Shown piece after piece: positions 1 to 28,380 of a DNA stretch of 29,303 bases (within the stretch, counting starts at the first letter, position 1; each line of letters starts with the position of its first letter). The stretch comes from Amoebophrya sp. A120 (Eukaryota; Protista; Dinoflagellata). The DNA lies in contig CAJINV010000005.1 in NCBI GenBank assembly GCA_905178155.1, positions 6,560,625-6,589,927 on the forward strand, given 5' to 3'. Under the pieces are notes generated by a model. The model was not told where the DNA came from and ran no database searches. It worked only from the letters and a program-made list of their open reading frames with translations. The position numbers and the translations under genes are program-made.

Positions 1-6
1 CCAAAA

Positions 7-616: not shown

Positions 617-3600
617 ATGGTCGATGAAATGGAAACTGTTGTTGAAGCTGAAGTAGTTGTAACTGGTCGTAGTTTTCTTCAGTATACGACGTTTGCCCCG
701 GTCGACAAGCAGGACGTAGTCCCTTCCGCGAGGATCCACGAGCAAAATGTGTCGCGTTGTGGACCTCAACATGCACTGCAGAGAGATCCTCTTGTTCCTG
801 TGATCAGTTTTTGGAGAGTTGTTTGCATGCACGACGACCCTCTTCGGCTTTCTGGACATGCACATGGGGCACTTTTCACTTTCATATGCGGTGGGAGAAA
901 CTTTCTCGGCGTGGGGGCGGTGGCTACCACGCGGCTGCAGCAGAAAACATCAGAGCGCGCCTGTGACCAGGAAGATAGTGCTGGCGTGGTAGTTGAGAAG
1001 GAGGATGTCGACGATTGTACATGCAAACCTGGGTACTCGAGAAATATAACTACCGTCGATGGTAGTTGGCAGTGGAACCCTAGCGAAGCGAGGGACGTTA
1101 ACCCCCCTACTCCCTGTAAAGCGGAGTCATGCGACCTGTCTTGTCCGACGGAGCCTGCGAGGATAAACTGCGAATCGTCCGAGGTCGCCGGGAAGGGCGG
1201 GATCTTTATGTCGAGCGATTTCAACGCTCACTCTCGGTGTCTACCCGAGCTAGACCTGCGAGGTATAACAGTCAGCGAGAACACTCTGCCAGCGAAGATT
1301 CTTGAATGGACGAAAGATCGCACGGAAACCGTCGGCGACACATCGGATGTTTACGAGAACCCGCCTTTTTCTCAAAGCGCCGGAAACTCAAATGGTAGGA
1401 GCATCCAGGAGGAGAAGTGTAAAAACCATTGTGCTGGCCATAACGGTGCTGGGGAGGATCCCTCTTGCCTCGGGTTTCTGTTGTGGAGGGCGAAGAAGGG
1501 GCCGGAGTGGACGACCGTGGATGCGTTACAAGGGGATTCAAATATGAACTGCAAATATATCTGGGTTTGGGAAGCTGTCGTGAATGTTTGTCATGCAGCT
1601 TTTCCATGCTTGATGAGGTCTGGAATGCTGTTGAACATAGCATCGCAGATTCTGGCGCACCAAGGTGGTCTATACCACGGTGCCTCTTCTGCATGAGATA
1701 TGTCGTCTCAACTTGATCAGAAATGAATAACTTTTGGCACCAGTCTTCTTACAATACAGAGTTTTGTGTGAGCGCGCCATTCCCAGGCCGCATCCATCAC
1801 TTCGAGGCCCGCCAGACATATTTGCAATGCATAGACGACACCGCGAGCAAGATGAAATGGCGGTGCAGATACTTCGACAAGGAAAGCGCTCCGAACGCCC
1901 TGGACACCTTGAAAGTGGTTCCCCTTGGCCTACCTCTTCGAGGTAGACTGGGGGGGGGAGTCAACAAGTGGTGCCCCTGTGTCATGTGTGCCGACAACCA
2001 GCTCTGGGACCAAAACTCGGGTCAGTGCACAGTATGCATTGCAAAAATGTCTGGGTCTGGAAACTTGTGATGCTGGGCGGCGTATCATGAGGAGGCCACA
2101 AGTGCTGGCTCAGCATGACAAGCTTCTGAGGTTCCAGGTGTTGCCTATTCTGCATGACAAACTGCGTTGCTGCATGACAGAAAAGTGGCGCTCTTGGGTA
2201 ACGTGCGTGACAGATTTGAGAGTCATGCCAGACAAGCATGACAAACATGCACTCTTCCAGACCCAGACATTTTTACATTTGATACACAGACTGCCCTAGC
2301 AATGCGTTTGCCAACGCCGGCAGAACTGCGTGTGTGTGCGACGGGAACAACGGCTACGCAGGGGACCTCACAGACCCGGCAGGAACAGGATCCTGCTCCC
2401 TTTGCAGTGAAGGGGTCTCGAACCAGGTTCCCAACGCGGCACACACGGCGTGTATCTGCAACTCGGCCAACGGTTACGCCGGTAACCTTGGCGCGGGAGG
2501 CACCTGCGCTCTTTGCTCAGCCGAAGGCCTGAACAAGGTTCCGAACGAAGCTGGCGATGCGTGTGTCTGTCCGGACTCGCTCCCGCACCTGAACAGCACA
2601 GACAACAGCTGTGTTTCATGTGGCGCAAACCAGCACTGGAACGAGACAGCAAACCAATGCGAAGACTGCCCTACCGGCGCGGTGGGCAACGCTGAAGGAA
2701 CTGAGTGTGTGTGTGACTCGGCCAGCGGGTATGCTGCCGATGCGGACAATAATTGTCAGTGCGATGGTGATGCCGGCTACGTCGCCGTTGCAGGTGAGAG
2801 CGCGTGCCAGTGCGATTCGGCTCGGGGCCTGGTGGAAGGGTCGGACAGCGGAACTTGTGTGTGCAACGCGGGACTCGGGTACGCCGGGCTTAGCGTGGAC
2901 GCATGCAACCTTTGCTCAGTTGTTAATCCGCAGTTGGTTGCGAACGACGCTGGCACAGGGTGTGTGTGCAACGCGGAACTCGGGTATCGCGTCGATGGGA
3001 ATGATAATGATTGTGAGTGCGATGCCGCCGGCGGCTGGCACCTCAATACCACGAGCGACAGCTGCGTCAGCTGTGAGGCAACTCAGTTCTGGAATGCTAC
3101 TGCAAACCTGTGCGTCGCTTGCGGGGCGAACGAAGTGGCCAACGCCACGGGTACCGGTTGTGTCTGCGACGCGGAGGGCGGTTACGAAGAGGGCTGCGTT
3201 GACGACGAATGCTTGGAGACGGCGTGTTTTGAAAGCTGCGACCTCACGTGCCCGACCGAAGACAGGGAGATCAACTGTCGGTCGGCCGCAATCGTTACTA
3301 TTGGAAAGGCGGGCCTGTACCAGAGGAGCGCGGAAGGACTGGAATCGATTTGTGCGCCTAAGCTTCTGGATACTGATGGGGATGGGGCTGATGATTTTGA
3401 CAACCACGAAGCCGCAGTTACGAATACCACAGTTCCCCAGCCGGATTGGGCGGCCAACGACACCGCCGGATCATCGTATGCCGACGGCCATGCGCAGGTT
3501 TGTGAATCCGCATGCGATGGCAAACGCGATCCGGACGACCGTATGGGTGCCTCAGATGTTACAAGCTCAGCCGTCACGACAAGAGAGTTGGGATTTTGTT

Positions 3601-6600
3601 TGGCATTTTGGGCAGCATGAGAAGCATACAGCGCCTTGCGCCTTTCGCAAAAATTCTCAGAGCCCGCGCCCTCGAACTTGTCACGCGCATCAAGTAGAAT
3701 TCTGTAGTGGGGGTAGACTGGAATGATCCAGTGGATCATGCAGTTTTTGCCTCACAGATTTCGATATTCTGTTCGTAGCTTTTGAGAATGTAACATTTGA
3801 GCAGTTTATAGGTCAGGACGGCGATTTGTGCGGCGGCTTCCTCCTGCTGGGTCTGGCTGGAAATGATTGGAAGTGCCGTTTTTTCAACCGCACCGTGCCT
3901 GCGTTGGAGCGAGCATCCTTCTATCACGAGGAAAACGAAGTCTCCCCTCGTCCCTATAGTGAAGTCAGAGATATATGTATTGCTATTGCTATTACAGGAC
4001 TTCTCATCGTCTCGCGCGGCAACGGCAACACCAAGTTGTAGCTGCTTTGCATTGTATTTGACTACAGCACCAGCAGATCATGAAACGTCTGCCCGGTCGA
4101 GCAGCTAACACATGCACAACCCAGTTTAGGATCAGAATCAGCCTCGAGCACGTTGCTGCGTTATGTACTACAGGGATCCGGCACAGTGACCGCAGTTGTA
4201 GATAGATACTTTACCCCTTTGCGTTGTAAGCAAAAAATGGGTCGTCCCAGGGAAGGCTTTTTCCAATCTGATAGACGTGCCGCAGGAGGATCATCACCCA
4301 CAATCAGAGGTGCCGCGAAGTGGTGCCCCTGCACCACGTGTAATCAGACCACCGAGATCTGGAACGAGACAGCGCAGGCTTGCCAGGGTTGTGCCGTGAA
4401 CAAGACGTCGAACGTATTACGATGAAAAATGCCCCCTCCCCATATCAAAACGGAAATCTGTGATGCAAATTTGGGGCCACAAATCAGCTTTGTGATGCTA
4501 GAAGGCAAAAGATGCGGACTGTAGTGCTGCCTAGCGTGGGAAAGCCTTGCAGCTCCAGGATGACAGGAGGCAACTGGAAGTGGGAAACAGCATGACAGAT
4601 TGCCTGCAATTTAGCCCGCAGCGTCGTCTCTTCGACTTCTAGCAATACAAGTCGATTTGTGTACTCAGATACAGCATCACAAATTCGCGCATCTTCCGTT
4701 TTCGATATGGGGTGGAGGCTTTTTTCACTTTGATAGAACGAGGCGGGGGACGCGTGCGCGTGCGACACGGAAAATGGGTACATCGACGACGGGGCCGGTG
4801 CGTGCCTGCTCTGCACGGGCAACAAAGAGCCGGACTCCAACGGGACTGCGTGCGGCTGCAACGCCAGCGCCGGGTGGCACCTGAATACAACGAGTGACGC
4901 GTGCGTGCAGTGCACGGAGGAAGCTGCGCCGCACTGGAACAGCACGGGCGAAGTGTGTGTGGGGTGCGCCACAAACCAGTCCTGGGACGCCACATCCAAT
5001 GCGTGTGTCGACTGCGACGCAAACAAGGTGGGCGACGCGCGCGGCACCGCCTGCGTGTGCGACGCCGCCCGCTGGCTCGTCGACGATGGGAAGGGCGGCT
5101 GCCGGCTCGAGGATTGCGAGCTGGACGTGAGGACCTGCCCCGCGGACCCGGCGGCAATCAACTGCGCGGCAGACGCATTCACCAGCTCGCGCGGCCGCTA
5201 CGTGCAGAGCGCCCTCGGCGGTCAGTCCCGGTGCGCGCCGGGCAACACTTCGGACGCCCTCCTGGCGGCGGTGGTGGGCGATGGCGTTTGGGAATATCAA
5301 ATGTAAAAATGTCTGGGTCTGGAAGAATGCAAGTCTGTCATGCTTGTCTGGCATGACTCTTAAATCTGTCATGCACATTACCAAAGAGCCTCACTTTTCT
5401 GTCATGCAGAAACGTAGTTTGTCATGCAGAATAAGCAACACCTAGAAGCTCAGAAACTTGTCATGCTGAGCCAGCAATTGTCGCCTCCTCATGATACGCC
5501 ACACAGCATCACAAGTTTCCAGACCCAGACATTTTTACATTGGATAGGGAACCGGATGACCCAACGAATGAAACCATCGGGATTCAGGAGCCACGGTGCG
5601 CTCAGCAATGCGACCGCCACCGCGCGACCTCCACCGCGGACGACTGTGTGGGGTATCTGCTCTGGAATGCGAACAATGGCTCGGTAGAAGACGCCGCCGA
5701 CGAGTGGGGCTGCAAGTACTTCAACCAAACCGTGCCCGCCCTGATGCACATATCAAATGTGAGAATGTCTCGGTCTGGAAGATTGCCGGGTTTGTCATGC
5801 ACATTTTGCATGACTCCTCAAGTCTGTGACGCATGCCCTAGCATCACAGATTTTTAGAGGGCTTCCTGATGCCTATTCCGCATGACAAATGCTCTTTCCG
5901 TGGTGCAAAATTTGGACTCTCTTTGCTGCTCATGCAATACAGATTTTTTTAGAATCCAAAATCAGCATGACAAGTTCGATTCTTCCAGACCCAGACATTT
6001 TTACAGTTGATAGCACATTGCTTGGAACGAAACTTTCGGGGATATCGAAAAGAAAAATCCCCCCTTCCCATATCGAAAGGCACGCCTCAGAGAATTTGTG
6101 ATGCTGATTTGTGGCCACAAATCGTTTCTGTCTTGCAAGAAAGCAGCGGCATACTCTCCGCCCCATTATGCAGGCGGTTTGTAATGCTGTCGGGCCTACA
6201 GCATAGACGTCCACCCACATGCCAAGTGCCTAGACCACCTCGGTGCATTGGCGTGATTATATGGGCCTGCAGTTCTCTACCGCAAGACAAGCCCGGTTTG
6301 TGTAAGTACGCAAGTCCAGCGTCAAAAGTTTGCTTTTGATGTGGGGAGGGGGGATTTTTCATTTTGATACGGGACCGCGTGGGGTTCGCCTCAAAGTGGT
6401 GTCCCTGCACCGAATGTCCGATATGAGAGTGCGCAACTCGTCGTCCCCGGTGTTTTCATTTCGCATGCAAAATCGCAATTTCAGATGTAGTTCGCTTTCT
6501 TCACTACTATGCATGACAAATTCCAGCAGAAGCCCAAACATTGCGACTTTCGGCATGTGAACTTGTCATGCACAACACCAGGTTCCAGTTCCACATGTTC

Positions 6601-8411
6601 ATGTGCTGGCATTTGTCAACAAATGAGGTGGAGGGGTGGGGTTGTGCACTCTCATACCCAACCACTACCGTGTACGATGCCGCTTCGGAGCGCTGTGTGT
6701 GTGATTTGTCGGCCGGCTACGCGGGGTCAGACTACAACTCCTGTAGTTTGTGCGCCGACTCGGAAATGGTCCCGAACGACGCGGGCGATGAGTGCGTCGC
6801 GTGCGATTCCAACCAGAACCAGCACTTCGACAGCTCGAAGAAACTACAGTGTACCACGTGTTTACCGGGACAACATTGGAACCCGCAGGAAAACACCTGC
6901 GTGACCTGTGCGGCCCCGAAGCCGGTCTGGAACAGCACGGGCTACGAATGCGTGGGCTGCGCTGCGGACCAGTTCTGGGACGCGGGTGCGAACGCTTGCG
7001 CCATATCAAATGCAAAAATGTCTGGGTCTGGAAACTTGTGATGCTAAAATGTGCATGATGGAAACGCTTCCGAATGCAGACCAGCATGACAACTGTCCGG
7101 AGCACTTTCTCATAGGCAGCCCGCATGAGAAACTGCGTCTTTGCATGACAAAAATGGCTGCGGCTTTTGTCGGTTATGCAATACAGATTTCCCAGGAATG
7201 TAAAGCTAGCATTACAAGTTACAACCTTCCAGACCCAGACATATTTGCATTTGATACGCCACGTGCCCGGAGAACTTCGAGTACAACGCGACACAACAAG
7301 TTATGGGGTTCTCAAACGTTCAGATTCTCAATTGTATACATGAATTCGTCATGCAAAATCGTCATGAGTATCTACATGATAATGATCAACAAGCTGCTCC
7401 TTCGCATGACAAGTTCTCGACGCTCCAGATAGCATTTAAGAATCTGCCGCCCCAATAAACCTGTAATGCCAGAAGCGCAATCTTCGCCCTTTCACTTTTG
7501 CCAGTCTTGCACCACAAATTCACGCAACAGTTGAGAGTGTAACACGTTTGAGAACTCCATACAAGCTTGCGTGGAGTCCACCTCCGGGCAGAACGCCACT
7601 TCCACCACGACGACCACGACGGACACCGTTGCGGTGGTCCCCACCACCACGACACCGAGCCCCGTAGAGGACACTCTGTGCAATCCCGCCGACCCAAACG
7701 AGAAGCTGTGCGGCCCCGGGGGGTATCAAATGAAAATATGTCTGGATCTGGATGAGTGCAACTTTGTCATGCACGTTTTGCATGAGCCATAATGTCTGTG
7801 ATGTATGCCCTAGCATCACAGATTTTTAGCAGGTTTCCTGATGCCTCTTCCGCGTGACAAATGCCCTCCCCACGTAGCACAAACTGGGCTCCTCCTCTTG
7901 CTGGTCATGGTGCAATACAGATTTTTTTAGAATCCAAAGGTAGCATCACAAGCTCCAACTTTCCAGACCCAGACATATTTGCAATGCATAGGGGGTGCTT
8001 CCTGGAGGTCGGGGGCGAACCGATGAGCCAGGCCATATCCTGAGTAAAAACATCCCCACACCAGAGTCAAGATGAGGATTTTGCAACACAAACCTAGAAC
8101 TTTTGGGGGTCACGCATCACAACTTGCAGTCCGTATTGTAGTGCAGGTTCGCAAGGCCAGCTGCATCAGAAATCCATCTGCTCATCCTGTATACAGCATT
8201 ACAAATTCCAAAACACGACTAAAAATGCCTCTCCTGGCGATGCGCATTACAAATGTTCCTGTCATTGCAAATCTGCATGACAACTCTGGTGTGGGGACGT
8301 TTTTACTCAGGATAGGCCACCGGCGGGGAGCAGGAAAGCAGTAGGGTTCAGAAAATTCATTCCCCCCTCCGCAAACTGCAAAGCAGAAAGTTTTTTCCTT
8401 CCGTGAAGTAG
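617..8411 (+). CDS. Large Cys-rich secreted/surface protein with three PAN/Apple-like modules and CxC/CxxC repeats (about 1380 aa, 14 exons)
   Basis: Inferred exons: 617-1541, 1835-2031, 2286-3540, 3812-3920, 4275-4413, 4737-5293, 5548-5749, 6014-6041, 6371-6420, 6658-7002, 7258-7300, 7563-7722, 7992-8034, 8316-8411. Joined length is 4149 nt with an open frame. The module CDLTCP..INC...CxxxC...CxGF...WxCxFF...KWCPC occurs three times, and there is a Thr-rich stretch near the C-terminus. Start is uncertain (ATG 617 or 827). Confidence 0.8.
1543..1833. mobile_element. TIR introner, family A (degenerate); intron 1542-1834 AT-AG
   Basis: Ends tatgaactgcaaatatatctgg ... ccagacatatttgcaatgcata; TSD eroded; removal restores frame (GDSN-DTASKMKWRC). 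Confidence 0.8.
2033..2284. mobile_element. TIR introner, family A; intron 2032-2285 GT-AC
   Basis: TIR core aaaaatgtctgggtctggaa / ttccagacccagacattttt; perfect TSD CACAG; inverted relative of 5295-5546. Confidence 0.9.
3542..3810. mobile_element. TIR introner, family E (degenerate); intron 3541-3811 GT-AG
   Basis: Ends tatgggtgcctcagatgttaca ... tgtaacatttgagcagtttata; frame restored into CGGFLL. Confidence 0.8.
3922..4273. mobile_element. TIR introner, degenerate family B-like; intron 3921-4274 CT-AG
   Basis: Ends tatcacgaggaaaac ... tttttccaatctgata; frame restored (ERASL-RAAGG...KWCPC). Confidence 0.65.
4415..4735. mobile_element. TIR introner, family B; intron 4414-4736 GT-AG
   Basis: TIR aaaaatgccccctccccatatcaaaacgg / ccgttttcgatatggggtggaggctttttt; perfect TSD GAACG. 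Confidence 0.9.
5295..5546. mobile_element. TIR introner, family A; intron 5294-5547 AT-AG
   Basis: Family A TIRs; perfect TSD GGGAA. Confidence 0.9.
5751..6012. mobile_element. TIR introner, family A; intron 5750-6013 AT-AG
   Basis: Family A TIRs; perfect TSD GCACA. Confidence 0.9.
6043..6369. mobile_element. TIR introner, family B; intron 6042-6370 AT-AC
   Basis: Family B TIRs; internal palindrome gatttgtggccacaaatc; TSD GGGGA/CGGGA. Confidence 0.9.
6422..6656. mobile_element. TIR introner, singleton family F; intron 6421-6657 AT-AC
   Basis: Ends tatgagagtgcgcaac ... gttgtgcactctcata (15/16 match); TSD TCCGA/CCCAA. Confidence 0.85.
7004..7256. mobile_element. TIR introner, family A; intron 7003-7257 AT-AC
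   Basis: Family A TIRs; perfect TSD CGCCA. Confidence 0.9.
7302..7561. mobile_element. TIR introner, family E-like; intron 7301-7562 TT-AC
   Basis: Ends tatggggttctcaaacgt ... acgtttgagaactccata (17/18 match); TSD CAAGT/CAAGC. Confidence 0.85.
7724..7990. mobile_element. TIR introner, family A; intron 7723-7991 GT-AG
   Basis: Family A TIRs; TSD GGGGG. Confidence 0.9.
8036..8314. mobile_element. TIR introner, family C; intron 8035-8315 AT-AG
   Basis: Ends tatcctgagtaaaaacatccccacaccagagt ... actctggtgtggggacgtttttactcaggata; perfect TSD GGCCA; inverted sibling at 23878-24156 (both 279 bp). Confidence 0.92.
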
Positions 8412-10836
8412 TGGATGCCGATTTGTATAATTATCAGCTTTGTAGTCGTCCCCTAGCGTACAGCGGAATAAAAGGAAGCCATGTTCTTGTGCTGGTCCTC
8501 GTGCAAGCGCAGTCTGCAGCCATTCTGTACTAGCCACGCATTTTGTGTGCACTACACGTGGTCGAAAATAAAGTTAAAGATATCTGTCATGTTGTTCAAT
8601 CGCTAGCCCGCTGAAGAATTACCGAGAAGACGGGCTTGGAAAGATAGTTTTCAAATAGTTATATGTACTGCCTGGTCTTGTTATTGTTTTGTTGAAATGA
8701 TCGGAAGGGGGGAATTATTTTTCCTTGTGATAGACAGCCAGAGCCAGGGCCTTATGGACACGACGGATGTGGACACGGGGTTTCTGATGCTGTGAGCTGC
8801 AGGGGCAGTGTGAAGGATGAGGCCTCATCAAAATGTTTCGGCGGCGCACAAAAGGAAGTAAAAATTCGTTACTGAGAATAAAATGTAAATGAAAATTGGA
8901 ATTCTCTACTTCATACCGAAGTTTAGAAGGTTGACGTGGAAAAACCCAAAACTCCTTGAAGTTGGAACAATTACACAAGTTCTTCCCGAAAGGGGTGATT
9001 CTTCGATCTCTTTACTTCTTTTTTTTTTTTTTTTTTTGTTTCGAAGCTTTATCAATCTATCATCAAGAAGACGCAGTGCATTCTTCTTGCTGCAGATGCA
9101 AATCGACCGCTGCTCGATCTACCTTTTAAATGTTTCTTTTTTTCCACAATTTTTCATAAACGCGAAGATTTTTCATTATTATGCAGAATTGATTTTTCAC
9201 AAGGTTTCGCACGCACATTTTTCAGGCACAATTTTTCACATTAACATGCAAATTAGAAGTTTGTTTCACATAGTACACTACAGTTTATTCACACGACCAC
9301 GACACCAATCCTTCCGCTAAATTTGCATTTTGACACTTCAGCTACTTTCAGTTTTATTTCACACTCGTTTTATAAGGTTTTTATTTTTTCGCTCATGATT
9401 TCTCAGGTTTCTAGTACTGCCGTGAGGATCCCAATCTGCGAGAACAAAGCGCCCCGCTTTGTGAAGGACGTACAAAGTACTAGACCCCCACGGTTTTTTT
9501 TCAAAAATCAAATCCCCACCGATATATTTATACGATTTGAATGTCGATGTCCCCAGCAGGAACACCCTAGAAATGAATAGAAAAAATAGCCCTCTCCAGA
9601 TCGATAGGACCCCGTGCAAGGACTACACAGCCACCCCTGCGTCCGCGTACTCCTGTGGAAGTTTTTTAGTCGTATTTTTGCGAGAAGAACGAGGGAGATC
9701 ATCAAGGTGGGATTACAAAGAAAAGTGTCCAGCCTCAAACCAGAGCGGCAATCGGAAAGAACAAGCCTCGGAACAGAAGTTGTGTTGTCCGCGGGCGTGT
9801 GGAAGAAGATTCAACTGAGATTCTGTTATCCGTAGCTACAAGCTTGTTCCTCTCTGCAACCGGAGGTTGAACTTGCAAAAAACTATAAAAGTCTTCCAGA
9901 CTGATGTGATGTGGAAAGGATTTTCTTCCCCTCATTATCCCCCCACTAAAACGACGCGTTTTGTCTATCAATATGAAGCTGCTGCAAGAACTAAGAGTAG
10001 GACCTTGCTCCCGCGGGTTTTGCTGGTAGGTGAAGGTGAGAATCTTCTGCGAAAAATCTGACGTAGTTCACGCGACGTCGCTGTTCAACAAAAAAAGGCT
10101 CTTACGAACACAAACGCCAGTATAGTCGTCCATAATTTGATTTTGAACAATGTCTCTTGTCGTGAATCGTACACGTGATGGCTTTCGATTAGGAAATTTT
10201 TTTGGGATATTGAGCAATTGCCGCAAAAAATTCATTTCGCACACGGCAAAACACAAGTGTCCTGTGCCGCTCGCGTTGTCGAAAGTATTCATCCAGCCCT
10301 GGCGGACACTAGCCGGCATGGCCATTGCAACCGTGTTGCATGAAGTTTTTTATGAGCGTACGTAGATGCCGTAGATCTATTTTCAAATGATCGTGCAGCA
10401 GAATGAATCTGACGTCGTGCAAAAGAATGCCTTGAACTCTGTCTCGTGCTCCTGGGAAAAAGAACTATACAGATTCGTACGGCATTTCGTCCGATTATTC
10501 AAGACATCCAAAAAAACAAAAAGACCTCGTCGCCGTACAACAAACCGGTTTTTGTCATTTTTCCTTCCCATCGTAGTTTTTGTTTGGTTTCGTTCGCTCG
10601 TCCCGTTTTCTTTCGCCTGCGAAAATTCAAATGCATCTTTATCATCTTCCGAATCGCGCCCAACAGGAGGACCATCCGCATGGACCTTTCTTTTCGTAGT
10701 TGAACTCGTTCCCGAGAAAAACCCTACTATCAAACACTGAAGGTCGTGAAGACGAGACCACGGACTTCATTCTTTTAAAGACACATCTACCCTGGTAGAG
10801 CCTTTTTTTTTCATCTACCCTGGTACAGAAACCACC

Positions 10837-13800
10837 ATGACGAGGCAACCTCCCACTGGAACTACGGGCGTTTGTCTCTCCGCCGCGACCAGGGGAAAAA
10901 CGACCACGCGGAAAACGACAGTGAGGATGCGGCTGCCCTCCGTGATGTCGGCCGTCACGCCCGCGTTGCTTGGCGGCGGCGGGATAAGCCTTCTCCTCGG
11001 TGTGGAGGCTGTGGTGACGACGCGGGTGCAGCAGAAAACTGCGTCACATGCTTCTGCTTACATCTATCCGTGTGACGGTGAGCATGAAGTAGAGACCAAT
11101 TGCTTCACCATCGGTGAAAATTCTTATTGCCTAAAATGTGGGTGCAACCCGGGTTACGCGAGAAAACATTGGCTCACGGGAGCATGGGTCACCAAAGCTC
11201 TTTTGCGGTCCGAGCCTCTTACTATTAAACCTTGTGAGGAGGTCTGCGACTTCACGTGTCCGACGGATCCTGCGAAAATAAACTGCGAGTCGAATGCGGT
11301 CAAGGATGCTCGTTTCGGTGAACCGCCGTCTGAGAAACCTGGGGTGTATGTGTCCAGCGGGGTGGACCCGGCCGCGGCGGGGAAATGTTTTCTGCCACTT
11401 GAAGGAGATGCCGATAATCTAGCAGAAATGGTGTTCGATTTCACCGGCTTCCGCACCACCTACGAGGACGCAACGCAAGCCAGTAACCATGTTATGCCGT
11501 GCAAATACATATGGCTGAGTCCTCTGAAGAATAAATGCGAGCTTGTGCTAAAGTCACTTCCCGTTGGCCGTACTGTGCACAGGTAGTAAAAGCGGCCCCG
11601 CTTTATTTCTTGTCACGACACGCAGATATGGTCGGTCGCTTTCGCATGGTGGTCGCTGAGCGTCGTCGCAAGAAAACATCGACTGCTTCGGCATGTAGTG
11701 CAGATTTATTTCTGAGCAATGCAAAAATGCATGACAACGGGACCCAGCTCCATATTTGCACCGCATAGCTTGGAACCAGAAGGAAAAGTGTGAGGAGTTT
11801 TGTGCTTCACAGGACGAGTGCCTCGGGTTCGTGCTGTGGAAGGGGGCAAAGAAGGCGGTAGATGAAGCTTGGGATATAGGTGATCTGACGGGGGCGGATT
11901 CTGATGGTAAGACAAAATGGCGGTGTGTATACTTCGACGGGTCAGAGGGTGTTGACGTGCTGGACGAGTTGGCAATGGTTCCAGAGGGCACGCTATGACC
12001 TGTAAATCTGTCTGGGCCTGGGAGAATGCAGATTTTTGCATACGGATACATATTAGTGGGGACCTGCGAGTAGAAGGTCCGCGATGCACGCGGAGCATAA
12101 CAAGATCCGCGAAGGGGTCTTCCTTGTGCTTAGTCCGCATAAAAAGAAATGGCCCGTGCGGGTCGTGAGAAAAAGTGTGCGCTTTCATTTCTGCTCACGA
12201 TGGTGCAAGACAGATTTTAGTGTGCTCCGGACCCAGCATCACAAGTTGCAATGTTCCAGAGGACCCAGACATGCTTGCAATGCATACACTCCGTATCGAG
12301 GCAGAATGGCATACGGCGTCCAGAAGTGGTGCCCCTGTACGGAGTGCAAGGATGGCCAGACGTTTGATACCAACTCGCAGAAGTGTAAATGCACCGGCGC
12401 CAACCAAGAGGTGAACGTTGCCGGAGACTGTGTGTGCAAGGACGGGTACAAGGATGACGGCGGGATTTGTGTCATGGATTGCGACCTGACGTGCCCCGTC
12501 GAAGTCATGTGCAAGGACTATGATGCGATTTACGGGTCCGACACGAAAATTCAAGGGGGCAGGTTCGTGACGCACCCGGTTGCGGAGAATGCTTGTGGTC
12601 CGCTGAACGATATGCATTGCAAATATATCTGGGTCGGGAAAAGGATTGCAACAGCTGCCATGCACATTTTGCATGACGCATGCTCTCTGTGATGTATGCC
12701 CTAGCTGCACCGAGGATTTTTTGAGTGCTTTTTGATCCTCTTTCCGCGTAGCAAAAAGTGGACGCCTCTTGCTGCTCATGCAATACGGATGTTTTTACAA
12801 TCCACAGGCAGCATTTTTGCCTGGCCAGCGAATGACCCCAGGGCAACCGGATGGCTGTTGCCTGGTTATCAGCGGCTTCGGCGATCGATCGTGCCCCTAT
12901 GGCCTTGTATTCCGGGTACTCCGGATCGCGCAACTAACCAACCAACAAGTTAGTTGGACTGCAAGTTCGATCCTCCTGTTGGGAATTGCTACAAGGTGTA
13001 CAACTTTTCCAGACCCAGACCACATATTTGCATTGCATAAAGGATATTGCAGGCAAGACTCACAAACAGCTGTTCGCGGACAACGTTATGACGTACGAAG
13101 CAGACGGCGGGAAAGGGGCACTGGCCCCGACTGCAGAGGATTGCGAAACAGAGTGCGCTGGAAATGCTGAGTGCGAAGGGTTTGTCACGTTCAATACCAA
13201 ACAAGACGGCGACAACGTCAACAAGTGGAAGTGCTATTGCTTTGGTACCAAGGCTGGAACCCATTATCCTTATCCAGACAGCAACAATGTGACGGACACG
13301 GAGAACGACAGAATTCGGCACCTCAGCAAGTGGTGCCCCTGCAATACCTGTCCAAATGGCAAGTTCTTCGACCCGACTGGTGCGCGGGGCAGTAATTGCA
13401 AGGAGTGTCTTGCAGATGCACATGCACCCAATTGGGACAGCAACAGTCACCAGTGCGTCGCGGAGTGCCCGAACGGTTACCCTGGTGCCGACTATCCCTA
13501 GTGGAAAAACCTACCCAGTACCCTGTATAGGTCAGACGGGAAATAGAAATAATTACAGTCATGATTTGCTACATCTAGAGGACAAATAATCCAGAAGTTC
13601 TTCTTCTTTTGGAACTTACGCATGACAAGCAGAACTTGAACTTTGGACATGCAAGGCAGTCCTGGCTAGCGTCCCTAGCCGCATAGCCAACTCACTAGCA
13701 TAACGAATTTCCAAACACGACTTCTTCTAAAGGGCTGCCAGGGGGAGTCGAGTGCTCTCTTTTTCTTTTGCTTCTCCGAGAAGCAAAAGAAAATCCAAAG

Positions 13801-16800: not shown

Positions 16801-17967
16801 CGCAGATAGTACGTGAAAACGCCCTTTAATGGGCCCTAATAAGCACGACAGACGCAATCATCTTGCATGTTGCGCATTACAAATTTACACTAACAACGTT
16901 TTTTTCTTGGATACGGCGCCGCTGGCGACCAGTGTCCGGACAAGGAGGAAAAGTGCACCGAGTGCGACGAGGGCTACAAGCTGGGCGTACCCTAGTGAAA
17001 AGTATCGTACTCGTATTGCAATCGTGCATTACAAAGTCTTTTCGTAAGGTAAATCCGCATTACAAATTTTTATTTTTCATGCTGAGGAAACTTGTAATGC
17101 ATTCATACGAGTACGATACTATTTTGCAATGCATAGGGCGCCACCAGCGGCAAGTGCGATGAGTGCGCCGAGGGGTTCGAGGACTCCGCGGGTGAGTGCG
17201 TGGCAGCTTCTCTCGCCCCTTTGGCGGAGCCTCCGTATTGTGAGGAAAAATCCCCCTACTTCCCCATATGGAAAACGCATCCGTCTCAGAATTTGTGATG
17301 CAGATTTGTGACCACAAATCCTGTCTGTCTTGCAAGAAGGCAAGAAGCCCAGAGTAGAGTCCGCCACATTATGCAGGCGGTTTGTGATGCTGCTCGCCTT
17401 ACAGCATAGAAGACATTGGTTATGCTAGTTGCCTAAGTCAAAACCTCTCAGCTCAGGCTTGGCGTATGCCTGCAATTCTCCACTGCAAGACAAATCCGAT
17501 CTGTGTACGGAACTCCAGCATCAGAAATTTCGTTTTGATATGGGGAGGGGGCATTTTTCCTTTTGATACTCCGAGCGAAAAACTGTGCGGAGAAGGCAGT
17601 TGTTTATGCATTGCAAATACTTGTGTCTGGGTCTGGAAGGATGCAAGTTGTGATGCTAATTCTGGATCGTGCAAAAATGTGTGTTGCATGAATGCCAAAA
17701 GCTGTCCACTTTTGACCAAGTAGAGTTAGAGAGGAAGTTTCTCATGCAGGATCATAGGCATGATAGGGATCATCTCACAGAATCTGTCATGCTAGGTCCT
17801 GCATTCCAGACGACATGGATCATGGAAAATCAGCATGACAAGCCTCGGAATTATCTTGATAATCCAGACCCCGACACGACATTTGCACTGGATATTGTTT
17901 TCTCGAAGTCAATGACGACCCAGAGGGGCAGCCGGCAGAACGAGAGGACGCGTTTCTCATGTTGTAA
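10837..17967 (+). CDS. Paralogous Cys-rich secreted/surface protein with three PAN/Apple-like modules (about 1050 aa, 15 exons)
   Basis: Inferred exons: 10837-11491, 11769-11992, 12288-12609, 13041-13491, 13894-14573, 14890-15155, 15482-15516, 15677-15744, 16010-16031, 16277-16358, 16641-16712, 16915-16986, 17137-17234, 17570-17603, 17896-17967. Joined length is 3153 nt with an open frame. It has a hydrophobic N-terminal segment, shares TTR(L/V)QQKT and EKLCG...CFLEV with the upstream gene, and contains the PAN-like EDCETECAGNAECEGF...WKCYCF. Alternative start ATG 10927. Confidence 0.8.
11493..11767. mobile_element. TIR introner, degenerate family A; intron 11492-11768 TT-AG
   Basis: Ends tatgccgtgcaaata ... 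tatttgcaccgcata; frame restored (SNHA-WNQKEKC). Confidence 0.8.
11994..12286. mobile_element. TIR introner, family A; intron 11993-12287 CT-AC
   Basis: Degenerate family A TIRs; TSD CACGC/CACTC. Confidence 0.8.
12611..13039. mobile_element. TIR introner, family A, with an approximately 175-bp nested insert; intron 12610-13040 AT-AA
   Basis: Family A TIRs and body, interrupted at about 12815-12989; TSD AACGA/AAGGA. Confidence 0.85.
13493..13892. mobile_element. TIR introner, family C-like (diverged); intron 13492-13893 CT-AC
   Basis: Ends tatccctagtggaaaaacctaccc ... gggtacgtttttctacaggata; TSD CCGAC/CAGAC. Confidence 0.8.
14575..14888. mobile_element. TIR introner, family B; intron 14574-14889 AT-AG
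   Basis: Family B TIRs; internal atttgtggccacaaat; TSD partly eroded (GTGGA/GATGA). Confidence 0.88.
15157..15480. mobile_element. TIR introner, degenerate family A; intron 15156-15481 AT-AG
   Basis: Ends tac...ctgggtctggatgagtgc / gcattcactcagacgccagacat...gata; TSD CGGGA/GGGTA. Confidence 0.75.
15518..15675. mobile_element. Short TIR introner, family G; intron 15517-15676 TT-AC
   Basis: Ends tatgcattgcagaagcatcgc ... gcgatgcttttgcgatgcata; TSD CGAAT/CGGAT. Confidence 0.85.
15746..16008. mobile_element. TIR introner, family A; intron 15745-16009 AT-AA
   Basis: Family A TIRs; TSD AATGA/AACGA. Confidence 0.9.
16033..16275. mobile_element. TIR introner, family D; intron 16032-16276 GT-AG
   Basis: Ends tatgcaaaa...aaaactgtgt / acacagtttttttctgggata; perfect TSD GCGGG. 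Confidence 0.88.
16360..16639. mobile_element. TIR introner, family A; intron 16359-16640 GT-AG
   Basis: Family A TIRs; TSD GCTTG/GCTCG. Confidence 0.88.
16714..16913. mobile_element. TIR introner, family D; intron 16713-16914 GT-AC
   Basis: Ends tatccaagaaaaaaacgttgt ... acaacgtttttttcttggata (perfect 21 bp); perfect TSD CGGCG. Confidence 0.92.
16988..17135. mobile_element. Short TIR introner, family G-like; intron 16987-17136 GT-AG
   Basis: Subterminal inverted repeat agtatcgtactcgtat / atacgagtacgatact; perfect TSD GGGCG. Confidence 0.88.
17236..17568. mobile_element. TIR introner, family B; intron 17235-17569 GT-AC
   Basis: Family B TIRs; perfect TSD CTCCG; opposite orientation to 14575-14888. 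Confidence 0.9.
17605..17894. mobile_element. TIR introner, family A; intron 17604-17895 TT-AT
   Basis: Family A TIRs; perfect TSD TTGTT. Confidence 0.88.
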
Positions 17968-18297: not shown

Positions 18298-18360
18298 GTA
18301 TCCGATACAATTCGACCTGTATTCGTTCTTGAAGAAGCTCCTGCTGGCGGCCTAAGGCAT

Positions 18361-19503: not shown

Positions 19504-19605
19504 AAGAAAGCCCGCCGGCTCACTGTGAGCCAGCGGGCTTTCTTTAGTAGCCGGCTGCTCACTGTATCGAAGTCCAGGACTGTGACACAGTCCTGGACTT
19601 CGATA
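19504..19605. other. Two adjacent 41-nt palindromes (20-bp arms, 1-nt loop)
   Basis: 19504-19544 has one mismatch and 19565-19605 is perfect; they are separated by 20 nt. Confidence 0.85.
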
Positions 19606-23336: not shown

Positions 23337-23877
23337 AGCCTCCTGGGTCTTCTGATGGTCAAGAAACCTCTGCCTTTTTTTCCAGTTCCTACATGTGCAT
23401 TCTGTCGAGCATTTTTAGATACTACTTTGATGTTTCATGTCTCGAAATCAAAACGGCGTGATGCAATGCCGCGTCGGTTGCAAAAACATGATCGGAAATT
23501 TGAAGCTTAGCGTTCGGATCCTCGCTCGCCACCGCACAAGTGCTCGCTTGTCGTTATTGTTTTGGTGTTCTCTTTTTTGTGCAAATAGGAGCACAACACC
23601 CATCTTTGCTTCTCGTTGGCTTTCTAGACGAATCGAAGCGAAAGGTCCTAACGGAGGACACGAAGCCAGAACGTCGTTGAAAAAGTACTTGTCGCAAAGT
23701 AAAAAGAACCGAGAATGCTAGCGGGGCTATGTCGGTCGTATTTAATAGGGTGTTCTCACAAGACCGCATAATGATATCTCCAGTTGTACCACGGAGCTTT
23801 TCTTCCAGAAGAAGTGATGGTCACTGCGTGGTCTTCATGTTGCGTATAAATCGATGAAATAACTAAGGGTACAAGCG

Positions 23878-24156
23878 TATCCTGTGTAAAAACGTCCCCA
23901 CCCCAGAGTTGTCATGCAGATTTGCCATGACAGGAACATTTGTGATGCGCAACCCCATGACAGGCATTTTCAATCGTGTTTGGGAACTTGTAATGCTGTA
24001 AACAGGATCAGAAGGTCGATTTGTGATGCGGCTTTCCTTGCTAACTTGCACTACCTTACGGACTGAAACTTGTCATGCGTGACTCACAAAACTCCTAGGT
24101 TTGTGTTGCAAAATCCACATCCTGACTCTGGTGTGGGTACGTTTTTACTCAGGATA
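23878..24156. mobile_element. TIR element, family C, in non-coding DNA
   Basis: Ends tatcctgtgtaaaaacgtccccac ... gtgggtacgtttttactcaggata; perfect TSD AAGCG; empty homologous site at 25217-25221. Confidence 0.95.
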
Positions 24157-24184
24157 AAGCGAGCGCGGCACAACTCGTGGCCAA

Positions 24185-24674
24185 TAGTACTGCCTCGTCT
24201 ACTTCGCTGGCAGGGAACAAGAAGTGTCAGGATGTTGGTAAAGAAGATATGGAAGTAGAACGGGAACGAAATGGGCTTACTCTGCTTGATGGCGATAGAA
24301 GTACTATCAAAGCCGCACTAGAAGAAAGAACCCGGCAAGAGCCTCATGGAGACACTGCAGGCGTTGATGGGGATCCTCACAGGGCGGGCAGCAGCTGCTC
24401 CCACCAATTATGCAACGACAGTGTGGTCGAAAGAGCTGCACGTGCACCAACCGGAGGTGGAACAGAGACGGGCCTGACAAAATCGGCCTCTCTTCACATC
24501 GAAGATGTCGCGAAAAAGGCAGAAGTACAAGATTCAAGACTAGGTGCGGGGCTCCGCCCTGAGGGTAAGGGCATTAGGAAGAGAGGACATAAGCCTTGTT
24601 ACCAACTTTTTTGCTGCTTTTTCCAACAGGAGAACAAGGGGAAACTAAGTGTTGGAGATACCCAAACAAGATGA
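24185..24674 (+). pseudogene. 5'-truncated paralogous C-terminal fragment of the 697-aa gene (frame still open)
   Basis: The ORF-track 165-aa frame matches the tail of the 697-aa protein with indels; the N-terminal and membrane part is missing. Confidence 0.6.
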
Positions 24675-25241
24675 AGCCTCCTGGGTCTTCTGATGGCCTA
24701 GAAACTTCTGCCTTTTTTTCCAGTTCCTACATGTACATTTTGTCGAGCATTTTTAGATACTACTTTGATGATGTTTCATGTCTCGGAATGAAAACGGCGT
24801 GATGCAATGCCGCGTCGGTTGCAAAAACATGATCGGAAATTCGAAGCTTAGCGTGCGGATCCTCGCTCGCCACCGCACAAGTGCTCGCTTCTCGTTATTG
24901 TTTTGGTGTTCTCTTTTTTTGTGCAAATAGCAGGAGCACAACACCCATCTTTGCTTCTCTTCGGCTTTCTAGACGAATCGAAGCGAAAGGTCCTAACGGA
25001 GGACACGAAGCCAAAACGTCGTTGAAAAAGTACTTGTCGCAAAGTAAAAAGAACCGAGAATGCTAGCGGGGCTATGTCGGTCGTATCAAGGTTGTTCTCA
25101 CAAGACCGCGTAATGTTATCTCCACTTGTACCTCGGAGCTTTTCTTCCGGAAGAAGTGATGGGCACAGCGTCTTGGTGTTGCGTACATTAAATCGATGAA
25201 ATAATAAAAACATTACAAGCGAGCACTGCGAAACTCGTGGC
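24185..25241 (+). repeat. Tandem segmental duplicate of about 22745-24181 (3' part of the 697-aa gene and its downstream flank)
   Basis: Both copies start tagtactgcctcgtctacttcgctggcagggaacaa, share the coding end FQQENKGKLSVGDTQTR*, and stay similar through aactcgtggc. Confidence 0.92.
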
Positions 25242-25893
25242 TTTTTGCCCTGGATCGTCGTCGTATTTGTTGCTCCTGCACAGGTGAAATATCTTGGGGT
25301 ACTTTTAATACATGACTTCGTCAGGAGTCTTGTCGTGAAAGGATGACAAAGCTGCTAGTGCTACATGGGCAAAAATAAACGTCCTCGTGGTTTCTTGTTG
25401 GAGCTTCGTGTCGTGGTCCATTCCTTTACGGAGGTGCCCTATCTAGTTGCACAACCACCCTCAGGTTCTTCGTCTGATCTGGGTCGTGTACGACTTGTAC
25501 AGATTCAAGGTCGTTTCTACCAGCAGAATCGTTCAGATTCATAATCATAATTTCCCGCTTATTTGCAGCTCGTGTTATTTCTCTATTTCCCTACAATTGA
25601 TGTTCCAAGCGCTCCAACATGGGAAGAACCGAAGTAGAGCCAGTTTTTTTGCGCAAAGAATTGTACGTAACCGGGAAAAATTCTTGTAAGGCTTGTAAGT
25701 ACTACGTGGTACACGACCGAGGCTCGTAACTACGAGGCACAACTAGAACTACGGTAGTTGGAGCAAAATTTGAAAATAACTTCTTCTGGGTCGCATCAAT
25801 TACAGGGTAGAACAACGCAGAAGGTGAAGAAAAAATTGTGCTAAAAGTCATCAACAAAGAAAACCTAGCCGTGTACTACAACTGCACCAGATC

Positions 25894-28380
25894 ATGAGCA
25901 CGATGCCATCGTCCATGCAACGCCTTGCGGGGAAGAAGATGATCTTGTCCCCGTTTCTCCACTCTGTGATCACAACTACCTTCGGACCGGTTGGGCCCAA
26001 GAGCTTTTGCGGTGCGGTGAAGCCGAAAACGACAACGGCGACTACCCTTCTGCGCAAGCGCCACGGGGGGAAAAGAACTGCCGAGAAGAAGGCCGCGGCC
26101 CTGGCGAAGGAAGACAGCGAAGAGGGAGGACGAAAGTCTGGTGCACACTCCACCTCCGTCGTGCCCCCGGTTGCGCACCTCAATGTGCTGAAGCCGAATC
26201 CCTACGAGAGTTATACTCCCTATGAGGAGAAGGACTTGGGCTGGTGCACTGGGCCGAGTGATACGACGTACCGAAAGGAAAAATCCCCCCTCCCCGTATC
26301 AAAACGAAATTTCTGATGCTGGATTTGTGTACACAAATCCGGGCTGTCTTGCTGGAGAGCACTGCAGGCCCATACGAAGTGCGAGTAGACGGGTTTTGGC
26401 TTAGGCGCTTAGCATGAAAAACGTCGGCGCTGTAGGCCCAACATCATGACAAACCGTCTGCACAATGCGGCGGAGCGTGCGGCGTTGCCTGCTTGCAAGA
26501 CAGACGCGATTTGTGGCCACAAATCAGCATCACAAATTTCCAAAAATATATCTGAATTCTCAGTATGGGGAGGGGGATTTTTCCTTTCAATACGACGCCC
26601 GCCTTCCTCTTTCCCGTCTCGTCGCCGCACCTGAAGGAGATGCCGATGTTCGCGGCAGAGGTGACGAAGGGCAAGGAGCTGGAGGACAGGCTCGGCGAAG
26701 AAAGGTGGACGATAAACAACGGAAATCTGGTGGGCGGATGCTTCGAGAAGGGCGGGGTTTTGCTGCGCGGCGAAGTCCGGGACCTGCTGGCCATCGACAC
26801 GCTGACGGACAAAAATTTGGAGGCGAACGGGCTGTACCTCTGCGAGTCCTTTGTCGCCTTGGGTGGCCGAGAACTCGGAAATGTCAGCAGGCAGTCCCCG
26901 GTATCAAATGCAAAAATGTCTGGGTCTGGAAGGATGCAAGGTTTGTCATGCACATGTTGCGTGACTCTTGATGTCTGCGATGCATGCCCTAGCATCACAG
27001 ATCTTGTGAGGTGGGCTTTCTGATGCCTCTACCGCATGAGAAATGCCCTCTCGCCGTGGCCAAAACCAGACCTCTTTTGCTGTTCATGCAATACAGATTT
27101 TTGGATAATGCAGACGCAGCATCACAAGGTGCATTCTTCCAGACCCAGACATTTTTACATTTGATACCCGGGAGGACTGGACTCGGACTCTGACCTGTAC
27201 AAGGCCCCGATTACGGAGGAGGAGAAAGATATCGCAAGAAAAAACTGTTTCACTGTGAACTTGTGATGCATGGAATGGAACACAGAACTATTTGTCTTGC
27301 TACACCTCCAACGCATTGGATTTTTAAGGTGTTTTCCCTTGGGAAGCGCGCATGGCAAGTTTTCTGTGTCATGTGTAGCAAACTTGTGATGCGGATCTTG
27401 CAAAACCATCACAGTGAAACAGTTTTTTCGTGGGATAAGGGACTCACTTCGGCAGCGGACGAAGAATACGAGTGTCCAGATATCAAGAAAAAAAATCCCC
27501 CTTCTCCATATCAAAACGGAAATCCGTGATGCAGATTTGTGGCCACAAATCAGCCTTGTCGTGCTAGAAGGGAAAAGATGCGCACTGTAGCGCTGGGTGG
27601 CGTGGGAAAGCCTTGCATGTTCAGCATGACAGGAGGCGCCTGGAAGTGGGAAACAGCATGATAAATTGCCTGCAAACGGTGCCACAGGTGCGGCTCTTGG
27701 CCTCGCCTTCTGCAATTACAAGTCGACTTGTGTACTCAAATACAGCATCACAAGTCTCGTTTTCGATATGGGGAGTTGGGATTTTTCCTTTTAATACCAG
27801 ACCCCGGCCGTGCTCAAGTTTTGGAACGACCCGTGGATGGTGTGGTGTGTGGATGGACCCAGACCGGAACCTGGCGTCGGACGATCTCCGTCCTCCATGT
27901 TTGACAAAAAGCACCTCGATCTGGAACCCGAGTTGAGTCTGCACGACATTTTCCAAGCGATGCAGGCCGCAGGCGAAGACAACTACACGCTGCCGAAGGA
28001 CCAGCGCAGTGCCATCATCTCCGCCGCGTTGGACTCTATGACCTGCTCAAACGTATTACGATCTCAAACGTTACAGCAGAGTCTGGGTTTTTTTGCGTGT
28101 TGCATGATGAGCATGACAGACTCGTCGCACAGCGTAGTTCTTCCACTTTCTGCAACACAAATTGAGCCGAATTCTCATTGCAGTTTGGGCAATTTATTTT
28201 CCGGAACTTGTCATTCGCATCAATCCTGTGGGAGTAGGGTAAGTAGATGATGCACTTCTTGCATCACAGATGTCCGCAATACTGATTCTATGGTAAAATA
28301 ACCGATTTGAGATTGTGACAGCTGAGCAGCTTATACACTCAAAAGTGATCCTCTGGTACGGGCGGGGAGACAAAACGCTG
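25894..28380 (+). CDS. Hypothetical protein, possibly mitochondrion-targeted; 3' end interrupted or outside the window
   Basis: Inferred exons 25894-26267, 26594-26900, 27168-27228, 27439-27479, 27798-28035 and 28337-28380 join in frame under the same rule. The first 60 or so residues are rich in S/T/K/R and lack acidic residues. Confidence 0.7.
26269..26592. mobile_element. TIR introner, family B; intron 26268-26593 GT-AC
   Basis: Ends taccgaaaggaaaaatccccc ... gggggattttcctttcaata-like; perfect TSD CGACG. Confidence 0.9.
26902..27166. mobile_element. TIR introner, family A; intron 26901-27167 GT-AC
   Basis: Near-perfect TIR of about 30 bp; perfect TSD CCCGG. Confidence 0.92.
27230..27437. 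mobile_element. TIR introner, family D; intron 27229-27438 AT-AA
   Basis: Inverted repeat gaaaaaactgtttcactgtga / tcacagtgaaacagttttttc; TSD AAAGA/AGGGA. Confidence 0.88.
27481..27796. mobile_element. TIR introner, family B; intron 27480-27797 AT-AC
   Basis: Family B TIRs; perfect TSD CCAGA; close sibling of 4415-4735. Confidence 0.9.
28037..28335. mobile_element. TIR introner, family E; intron 28036-28336 CT-AC
   Basis: Ends tatgacctgctca ... tgagcagcttata; TSD GACTC/CACTC. Confidence 0.82.

Follow-up and report, generated by a model that had tools for sequence, protein, structure and literature searches.

The introners of Amoebophrya sp. A120 are the closest described counterparts of the introns considered here (Farhat 2021, PMC7789003). 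In the accessible parts of that work they are RNA-sequencing-supported, hairpin-forming introns of about 240 nucleotides (nt) that resemble miniature inverted-repeat transposable elements (MITEs): their inverted repeats start with TAT and carry a run of A further in, and direct repeats of 3-5 nt (5 bp in the legend of Fig. S19) stand at their borders. Its authors state that the ends carry no clear signature and that the place of the border with respect to the hairpin varies or is unknown; in A120 the commonest repeat is one of four nucleotides ahead of the 5' end. Because the splice sites are non-canonical, the A120 gene models were built on transcript alignments. We analysed a 29,303-nt stretch of A120 DNA (hereafter the window), in which three plus-strand genes are interrupted by elements with terminal inverted repeats (TIRs). 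These elements are the published A120 introners, from the same organism and gene set, with the same TAT inverted repeats, A run and direct repeats, and the system itself was already known. What distinguishes the present account, for three genes, is a single splice register, exact removal of one copy of the target-site duplication (TSD), splicing in both orientations and neglect of GT-AG.

Dataset S2 of Gozashti 2025 (PMC12130899) holds 58 A120 families. In the 21 of its 58 rows compared here, these are mostly TIR DNA elements of unassigned superfamily, with TSDs of 2 to 5 or missing and with three splice-site mechanisms; a common register is not given in those rows, in contrast to the single one found in the window. 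TSDs of 2 to 11 or missing appear in 28 of the 60 A25 rows.

As described in the accessible literature, introns of euglenids and hemistasiid diplonemids share with those of A120 non-canonical ends, TIR pairing at a fixed offset, TSD-like repeats and a presumed MITE origin; the introns of the window likewise have an end-to-end stem at a fixed offset and terminal dinucleotides that are not conserved. The euglenid core, however, is CAG at +4 to +6 with CTG at -8 to -6, against TAT at +2 to +4 with ATA at -7 to -5 in A120 (positions counted inwards from the intron ends), excised euglenid introns are circles, and the lineage is unrelated to A120. Fritillaria borealis also has MITE-derived introns with TIRs and TSDs that are mostly not GT-AG and are removed by an adapted U2 spliceosome (tunicate paper PMC13326754; Mikina 2024 review), and is thereby a precedent for such removal. 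It keeps preferred ends (AG-AC, AG-AT) and U1, whereas +2T is the only terminal base retained in A120, where U1 was not found. Introners of Polarella, Symbiodinium, Aureococcus and Micromonas are, as in A120, DNA transposons turned introns that use TSD bases (Roy 2020 preprint); some classes work in either orientation, and one Polarella class has a 5-nt TSD. As described there, they need a donor starting with G (GT, GC or GA) and an AG from the element or the TSD, and these needs restrict their insertion sites; the A120 elements need neither and are free of that restriction.

One exon query per gene matched A120 proteins at 100% identity in a protein search, which confirms the link to Amoebophrya that had been suspected from the DNA letters alone. 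The host genes are:

1..890, plus strand: 3' part of the long first intron of gene 1; TIR-like run at its end, ATA at 884-886, then four bases
891..8795, plus strand: gene 1, Cys-rich repeat protein; public protein P0002 = CAD7951635, 1297 amino acids (aa); 14 TIR introns inside this span
10837..17967, plus strand: gene 2, Cys-rich paralog of gene 1; public protein P0001 = CAD7951639, 1036 aa; 14 TIR introns
25894..28250, plus strand: gene 3; public protein P0003 = CAD7951646, 407 aa; 4 TIR introns spliced, then reading into a fifth element

Two sequencing runs, both used as assembled contigs, bear on splicing: X1 is DNA-like, and X3 was taken as RNA-like by a guess. Over the intergenic interval 24921-25547 the depth is 0 in X3 where X1 has 35, and X3 therefore behaves as RNA.

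The elements were collected by an unbiased inverted-repeat scan and a TAY...RTA scan of the window. A prediction made earlier from the sequence (the original prediction) had named 32 TIR elements as introns under the rule N-TAY...ATA-N, which removes the element plus one base on each side. All 32 are present (148-429 bp; 13 in gene 1, 14 in gene 2 and 5 in gene 3), starting with TAT, or TAC in three cases, and ending with ATA; the counts of flanking bases given for them are exact (first base A 13, G 11, C 4, T 4; last base G 14, C 14, A 3, T 1). The statement that every interruption is of the TAT or TAC kind proved too narrow, as gene 1 also holds a TAG intron (element 8342-8732) and the long first intron that enters from the left. 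Thirty-one of the 32 are supported as introns, element 28037-28335 being read through in P0003; leaving it out and adding 8342-8732 gives the 32 protein-level junctions used below, whose elements start with TAT (28), TAC (3) or TAG (1). The A run further inside the TIR appears as A at +12 to +15 in 23-30 of these 32 introns. At an inverted-repeat score of at least 12 the window contains 32 TAY starts, a set not exactly identical to the intron list, while each of 20 local shuffles yields 0-2.

Each line below gives an intron in the register established further on, its element and the number of matching TSD positions out of five; four further sites close the list.

1542..1837, plus strand: intron; element 1543-1833; TSD 1/5; informative on the register
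2032..2288, plus strand: intron; element 2033-2284; TSD 5/5; 90% identical to the inverted element 5295
3541..3814, plus strand: intron; element 3542-3810; TSD 2/5; in-frame GT-AG present, unused
3921..4277, plus strand: intron; element 3922-4273; TSD 0/5; informative on the register
4414..4739, plus strand: intron; element 4415-4735; TSD 5/5; in-frame GT-AG unused
5294..5550, plus strand: intron; element 5295-5546; TSD 5/5
5750..6016, plus strand: intron; element 5751-6012; TSD 5/5
6042..6373, plus strand: intron; element 6043-6369; TSD 4/5; inverted relative to 14575 and 26269
6421..6660, plus strand: intron; element 6422-6656; TSD 3/5
7003..7260, plus strand: intron; element 7004-7256; TSD 5/5
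7301..7565, plus strand: intron; element 7302-7561; TSD 4/5; rules out register 0+5
7723..7994, plus strand: intron; element 7724-7990; TSD 5/5; in-frame GT-AG unused
8035..8318, plus strand: intron; element 8036-8314; TSD 5/5
8341..8736, plus strand: intron; element 8342-8732, TAG start; outside the 32 first predicted; GT-AG and GC-AG present, both unused
11492..11771, plus strand: intron; element 11493-11767; TSD 1/5; TT-TT ends; 1+4 uniquely fixed by protein and RNA contig
11993..12290, plus strand: intron; element 11994-12286; TSD 4/5
12610..13043, plus strand: intron; element 12611-13039; TSD 4/5
13492..13896, plus strand: intron; element 13493-13892; TSD 4/5; 405-base skip in the RNA-like contig, element of 400 bases
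14574..14892, plus strand: intron; element 14575-14888; TSD 3/5
15156..15484, plus strand: intron; element 15157-15480, TAC start; TSD 3/5
15517..15679, plus strand: intron; element 15518-15675; TSD 4/5; informative on the register
15745..16012, plus strand: intron; element 15746-16008; TSD 4/5
16032..16279, plus strand: intron; element 16033-16275; TSD 5/5; in-frame GT-AG unused
16359..16643, plus strand: intron; element 16360-16639; TSD 4/5; inverted relative to 5751, 7724 and 26902; in-frame GT-AG unused
16713..16917, plus strand: intron; element 16714-16913; TSD 5/5
16987..17139, plus strand: intron; element 16988-17135, TAC start; TSD 5/5; in-frame GT-AG unused
17235..17572, plus strand: intron; element 17236-17568; TSD 5/5
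17604..17898, plus strand: intron; element 17605-17894; TSD 5/5; inverted relative to 15746 and 26902
26268..26596, plus strand: intron; element 26269-26592, TAC start; TSD 5/5
26901..27170, plus strand: intron; element 26902-27166; TSD 5/5
27229..27441, plus strand: intron; element 27230-27437; TSD 3/5; informative on the register
27480..27800, plus strand: intron; element 27481-27796; TSD 5/5
28037..28335, plus strand: TIR element; TSD 4/5; predicted intron 28036-28339; read through in P0003
18089..18297, no strand assigned: TIR element of the same kind, past the end of gene 2 and not within the reading frame; its 5-bp TSD is perfect
23878..24156, no strand assigned: TIR element, perfect 5-bp TSD, in non-coding DNA; inverted relative to 8036
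25217..25221, no strand assigned: empty site, with the 5-mer present once, in the duplicate of the segment around element 23878

Identity between the two flanks is 0.81 at a length of 5, as against 0.23-0.38 at lengths 1-4 and 6-10, which were rejected as TSD lengths, and 17 of 34 elements have a perfect 5-bp TSD. Direct evidence for a duplication of 5 bp comes from the empty site at 25217..25221, where the duplicated segment has a single copy of the 5-mer that stands twice around element 23878-24156. Several element families occur within the window, and the summed depth of X1 contigs over element bins is thousands of times that of the flanks. With their TIRs, TSD of fixed length, small size, many copies and presence in both orientations, the elements are non-autonomous TIR DNA transposons of the MITE-like kind.

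Removal of the element plus two bases opens the reading frames of genes 1-3, as had been claimed for N-TAY...ATA-N, but removal of the element plus five opens the same frames equally well, and the frame alone therefore cannot fix the intron ends. Taking out the element plus 0, 1, 3, 4, 6 or 7 bases closes the frames of genes 1 and 2 early, and taking out eight more (4+4) closes that of gene 1.

The ends can be read from a 3490-nt contig on gene 2, record 9 of run X3, which aligns in three pieces without differences: 10672-11491 (record positions 1-820), 13043-13489 (1360-1806) and 13895-14572 (1807-2484). At element 13493, which is 400 bases long, the contig lacks 405 bases; over three other elements with a summed length of 997 it lacks 1012, a mean surplus of 5 bases per element. 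With piece ends taken as the leftmost joint, a convention derived from the description of the tool and from element 13493, a register of one base before the element and four after it (1+4) is the only one to match all four visible ends; the rule of the original prediction matches one, at which the rules do not differ.

For the junctions of genes 1 and 3, and for those of the nine final introns of gene 2, support comes from the public proteins. P0001 is reproduced letter for letter over its 1036 aa by the 1+4 model, whereas six other rules fail; P0002 departs from its 1+4 model solely ahead of the window's first intron, as exon 1 of the gene is located to the left of the window. All 32 junctions in P0001-P0003 agree with register 1+4, whereas the five alternative ways of removing the element plus five bases agree with 29, 29, 27, 23 and 21 of them, and the three ways of removing the element plus two with none. 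Twelve junctions discriminate between registers at the protein level, among which 11493 alone admits nothing but 1+4; were one of six registers picked at random, all 12 would be compatible with 1+4 with a probability of about 4e-4 (2e-3 if 11493 is left aside). Register 4+1 is ruled out at 9 junctions and 1+4 at none. The end of the first intron of gene 1 (ATA at 884-886 and four bases) is compatible with 1+4, though not with it alone.

We conclude with high confidence that the intron has the form N-TAN...ATA-NNNN, the element together with one whole TSD copy, one base before and four after. The mRNA therefore regains its pre-insertion length, retaining bases 1-4 of the left TSD copy and base 5 of the right one. 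Three genes underlie this rule, and the four-nucleotide repeat that Farhat 2021 describes upstream of the 5' end agrees with it. Since A120 borders are described in print as variable or unknown, the fixed register looks new; in the literature on A120 introners and related introns, searched mostly outside subscription journals, we found no statement of it.

The original prediction was thus right about the 5' cut, one base before TAT, and wrong about the 3' cut, which lies four bases after ATA and not one: its junctions 2031/2286, 7300/7563 and 17603/17896 become 2031/2289, 7300/7566 and 17603/17899. Its rule, under which every insertion would add one codon, has next to no chance of being correct. 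It does open the frames, and among the nine A120 end pairs that are most frequent in Table S4 of Farhat 2021, eight have the expected form NT-AN; yet none of the 32 protein junctions follows it, the 5-bp TSD contradicts it, and the RNA-like contig lacks 3 nt more per intron than it predicts, the 405-base skip refuting it at 13493. It also predicts 75% AG or AC ends against 47% published, and NT-AN pairs rank high in the alignment simulation given below as well.

The loss of an element with one repeat copy is also what precise excision from DNA, or a reverse-transcriptase jump across the hairpin between the direct repeats, would give, and the RNA status of X3 was a guess. We hold this to be very improbable. 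An unbroken piece of X1 without a single difference runs from 10500 to 14643, over four elements and into a fifth, at a depth of 26, although this is one DNA run, contigs drop rare variants and joints were not fully counted. X3 behaves as RNA, the reading frames open only once the elements are taken out, and template switching does not predict the same register where only 0-2 of five repeat positions match (3922, 1543, 11493 and 3542).

Another reading accepts removal of the element plus five bases and lets the spliceosome slide within the TSD to the most GT-AG-like position. Published ends of six large families, picked from the 21 A120 rows of Dataset S2 (n = 1898; GT.27, AT.17, AG.29, AC.18), look like a blend of 1+4 and 4+1, Farhat 2021 calls the splice sites variable relative to the hairpin, and 20 of the 32 junctions in the window do not discriminate. 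Even so, we consider sliding unlikely: the nine exclusions of 4+1 face none of 1+4, and at 11493, 3922 and 8342 the more canonical 4+1 ends (AT-AG, CT-AG and GC-AG) were available and are excluded. A simulated aligner that slides towards GT..AG within perfect 5-bp TSDs, scored in the way BLAT slides introns, gives similar tallies without any biology (GT.28-.34, AT.15-.16, AG.32-.39, AC.17-.29); the published scatter is thus expected from annotation under a fixed or a sliding register. A register that depends on orientation, with 4+1 for reversed copies, is disfavoured too, as 4+1 is excluded at 9 of 9 testable junctions, none of them the reversed member of a matched pair.

In register 1+4, +2T, +3A and ATA at -7 to -5 are present in 32 of 32 introns, and +4 is T in 28, C in 3 and G in 1. 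The original prediction had recognised +2T and +3A as invariant and placed ATA at -4 to -2. Positions -1 and -2 carry 0.12 and 0.15 bits, and 23 different terminal end pairs occur among the 32 introns. The canonical U2-type pair GT-AG is found in none of them; the six cases first reported reproduce under the two-base rule only. AT-AC is found in one, which does not make these introns U12-type, and minor-spliceosome small nuclear RNAs are not reported for A120 in the accessible parts of Farhat 2021. An in-frame GT-AG pair lies at most 12 nt away at 18 of the 32 elements, directly at the element ends in seven cases, and the public proteins use none of the 18: terminal G residues are ignored, as predicted, and no nearby cryptic GT-AG takes their place.

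Nine elements have a decayed TSD (19 of 45 matches), and in these the three terminal pairs persist in 25 of 27 cases, with stem positions 4-8 down to 19 of 45 pairs. Identity of the TSD copies is not needed for excision, the terminal dinucleotides are free, and GT-AG pairs are ignored. In its core, that of TIR-transposon-derived introns under one rule whose signal comes from the TIR, the original prediction holds: the ends are invariant in 32 of 32 introns and the register is kept after TSD decay. As gene 2 has no introns other than its 14 TIR introns, the end signal is, for this gene, not an artefact of the search method. Position +1 is a purine in 25 of 32 introns (p 0.012 against exon composition), the A at -7 is invariant though its partner at +4 is mismatched in 4 of 32, and no compensatory change at the invariant TA (+2/+3) and ATA is seen in the 32 introns.

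Homologous elements occur in both orientations within the plus-strand genes: 2033 against 5295 (90% identity), 6043 and 17236 against 14575 and 26269, and 16360 and 17605 against 5751, 7724, 15746 and 26902. Since they are spliced either way, the signals must lie in the symmetric ends and not in the interior; and since the register is kept in both orientations and after TSD decay, excision must be measured from the TIR. Mismatches of the G-U type outnumber those of the A-C type within the TIRs, at 31:16, 34:22 and 51:28 over 15, 20 and 30 nt (p = 0.04, 0.14 and 0.013), whereas the interiors show no strand bias (52:50); this lends modest support to pairing on the transcript. RNAfold pairs +2 with -5 in 27 of 32 introns. 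Pairing of +1 with -4, in only 7 of 32, is not supported. The shortest exons between adjoining elements measure 19 nt (16013-16031), 22 nt (8319-8340) and 25 nt (6017-6041); TIRs of neighbouring elements could cross-pair there, and these very short exons are nonetheless kept in the public proteins.

We propose, as somewhat the better bet, that TIR transposons with a 5-bp TSD are cut out in register 1+4 by what is likely a modified U2-type spliceosome reading the TIR ends. Insertion duplicates 5 bp, and removal runs from one base before the 5' TIR to four after the 3' TIR. The +2U and +3A may be what is left of a GURA-type donor whose +1 has become relaxed; the invariant A at -7 or -5 could serve as branch point, the 3' site then being set by a fixed distance and not by AG; and the TIR hairpin, in which +2 pairs with -5, might bring the intron ends together. 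Fixed distances between branch and acceptor occur in some reduced protist introns. We prefer this mechanism because +2U and +3A are donor-like, +1 leans towards purine, the A at -7 is kept when its partner changes, and A120 has most parts of the spliceosome: nearly all spliceosomal proteins, U2, U4, U5 and U6, with 35% GT-AG introns, according to the accessible parts of Farhat 2021. In A25 the same source gives TT as the commonest intron start and repeats that start with TTA, which would yield the same +2T and +3A.

The same register could also be produced without a spliceosome, by a structure-guided nuclease and ligase that measure from the TIR stem. With respect to the extended helix, their cuts would produce a 3-nt 3' overhang, and the intron would perhaps come free as a circle. 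The unconserved terminal dinucleotide, the disregard of perfect in-frame GT-AG pairs, the independence of orientation and the G-U excess with the predicted pairing of the ends all point that way. The failure to find U1 in A120 or A25 (Farhat 2021) does so too, as do euglenid introns, which pair +4 to +6 with -8 to -6 and are released as circles (Mikina 2024 review), and the RNase III-like and tRNA-splicing-like routes proposed for diplonemids (Thakur 2025). Against such an enzyme, what is fixed is sequence and not pairing alone: TA at +2/+3 and ATA are invariant without compensatory change, the A at -7 persists when unpaired, stem positions 4-8 are often unpaired (the 19 of 45 pairs in old elements), and a near-complete spliceosome is present in A120. 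On balance we find this route possible but doubtful. Tentative in like measure is the corresponding view of the organism, in which A120 would have a second, non-spliceosomal mRNA splicing pathway that recognises the terminal hairpin of the transposon (UA...AUA) and makes the 1+4 cuts. If so, insertions with a 5-bp TSD would be erased scarlessly, in either orientation and any sequence context, and the +2:-5 geometry would extend to A25 with its TTA ends, where introns of the form TTA...TAA-NNN are then predicted.

Several points weigh against removal by a modified spliceosome in register 1+4. Direct RNA evidence amounts to four junction ends, all in gene 2 and from one assembled contig; the public proteins and X3 possibly share an RNA source and are then not independent. 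As 11493 is the one junction that fixes 1+4 by itself, the rule assumes a single register for the others, and element 28037-28335 is read through in P0003. In raw reads of two RNA runs, X9 and X10, there were 9 and 4 partial matches respectively and no joints, which is uninformative on expression. The purine bias at +1 may be an insertion preference, and the G-U excess is modest and comes from elements related to each other. A long stem would hide both splice sites, U1 was looked for in A120 and A25 without success (Farhat 2021), and no base is conserved at -1 or -2, unlike the AG-AC and AG-AT of Fritillaria; these three points fit a non-spliceosomal route.

A single register turns what has been described as tens of thousands of introns with no clear signature into a testable consensus, one that offers two candidate branch nucleotides (-7 and -5), accounts for the scatter in print by alignments that slide within the TSD, and allows re-annotation. 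The authors who described the A120 introners left their splice position and mechanism open, and the corrected rule addresses the position. Because the element is removed with exactly one TSD copy and without any need for GT or AG, a fresh insertion is silent at the protein level wherever it lands, which explains the invasion of A120 by these elements. It also raises the question of whether a spliceosome can work without a conserved base at its 3' splice site or whether a second pathway exists.

Genes 1 and 2 are paralogous and lie in tandem; in both, Cys-rich modules (KWCPC, CxLxCP) are repeated, and their C-termini are alike. Their products are possibly surface proteins. Searches limited to the longer proteins found no relatives of genes 1-3 outside A120. 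In Pfam, DUF5874 scores above the cut-off for an exon of gene 1 and below it for the whole protein; host proteins and flanking open reading frames (ORFs) otherwise gave only weak matches to YdjO, DUF913 and Cnd1_N, below cut-off. Rfam has no match at gathering score in the window, whether to group I or II introns or to other curated RNA families. The first intron of gene 1 is longer than 885 nt and carries an array of CTTCTGAAG/CTTCAGAAG motifs at 1-480; its terminal TIR resembles those of elements 6043 and 17236, and judged from sequence the intron could be one long element belonging to that TIR group.

The target preference of the elements appears non-palindromic, with C or G as first base of the TSD in 26 of 32 cases and A or G as last base in 24 of 32, and may be due to selection favouring a purine at position +1 of the intron. 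Sub-terminal motifs of the TTGTCATGC/TTGTGATGC type recur on the 5' side, with their complements on the 3' side (e.g. 5363-5432 and 15620-15806); common to otherwise unrelated element families, they are possible transposase binding sites. The 5-bp TSD and TAT...ATA ends presumably resemble those of retroviral-integrase-type elements. One A120 TIR family is reported in Gozashti 2025 as having homology to long-terminal-repeat elements. Segment 28382-29303 holds a 5' TIR of the commonest family, at 28382, its partner not seen in the window; two ORFs behind it have no Pfam match. In X1, 28464-28891 is covered about 3-4 times as deeply as its flanks, and X3 contains a diverged copy of it. Segment 28382-29303 is a candidate long or autonomous element.

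A segmental duplication spans 22739-25240: the 3' end of an intronless ORF of 697 aa (21243-23336) and the DNA downstream of it recur at about 24186-25240, element 23878 being in the first copy only. Short intergenic inverted repeats at 19490-19605 are, by eye, not of the TAT...ATA type. Downstream of gene 2, at 18440-19015, a 213-nt tandem repeat is present in two full copies, 97% identical, and a partial third.

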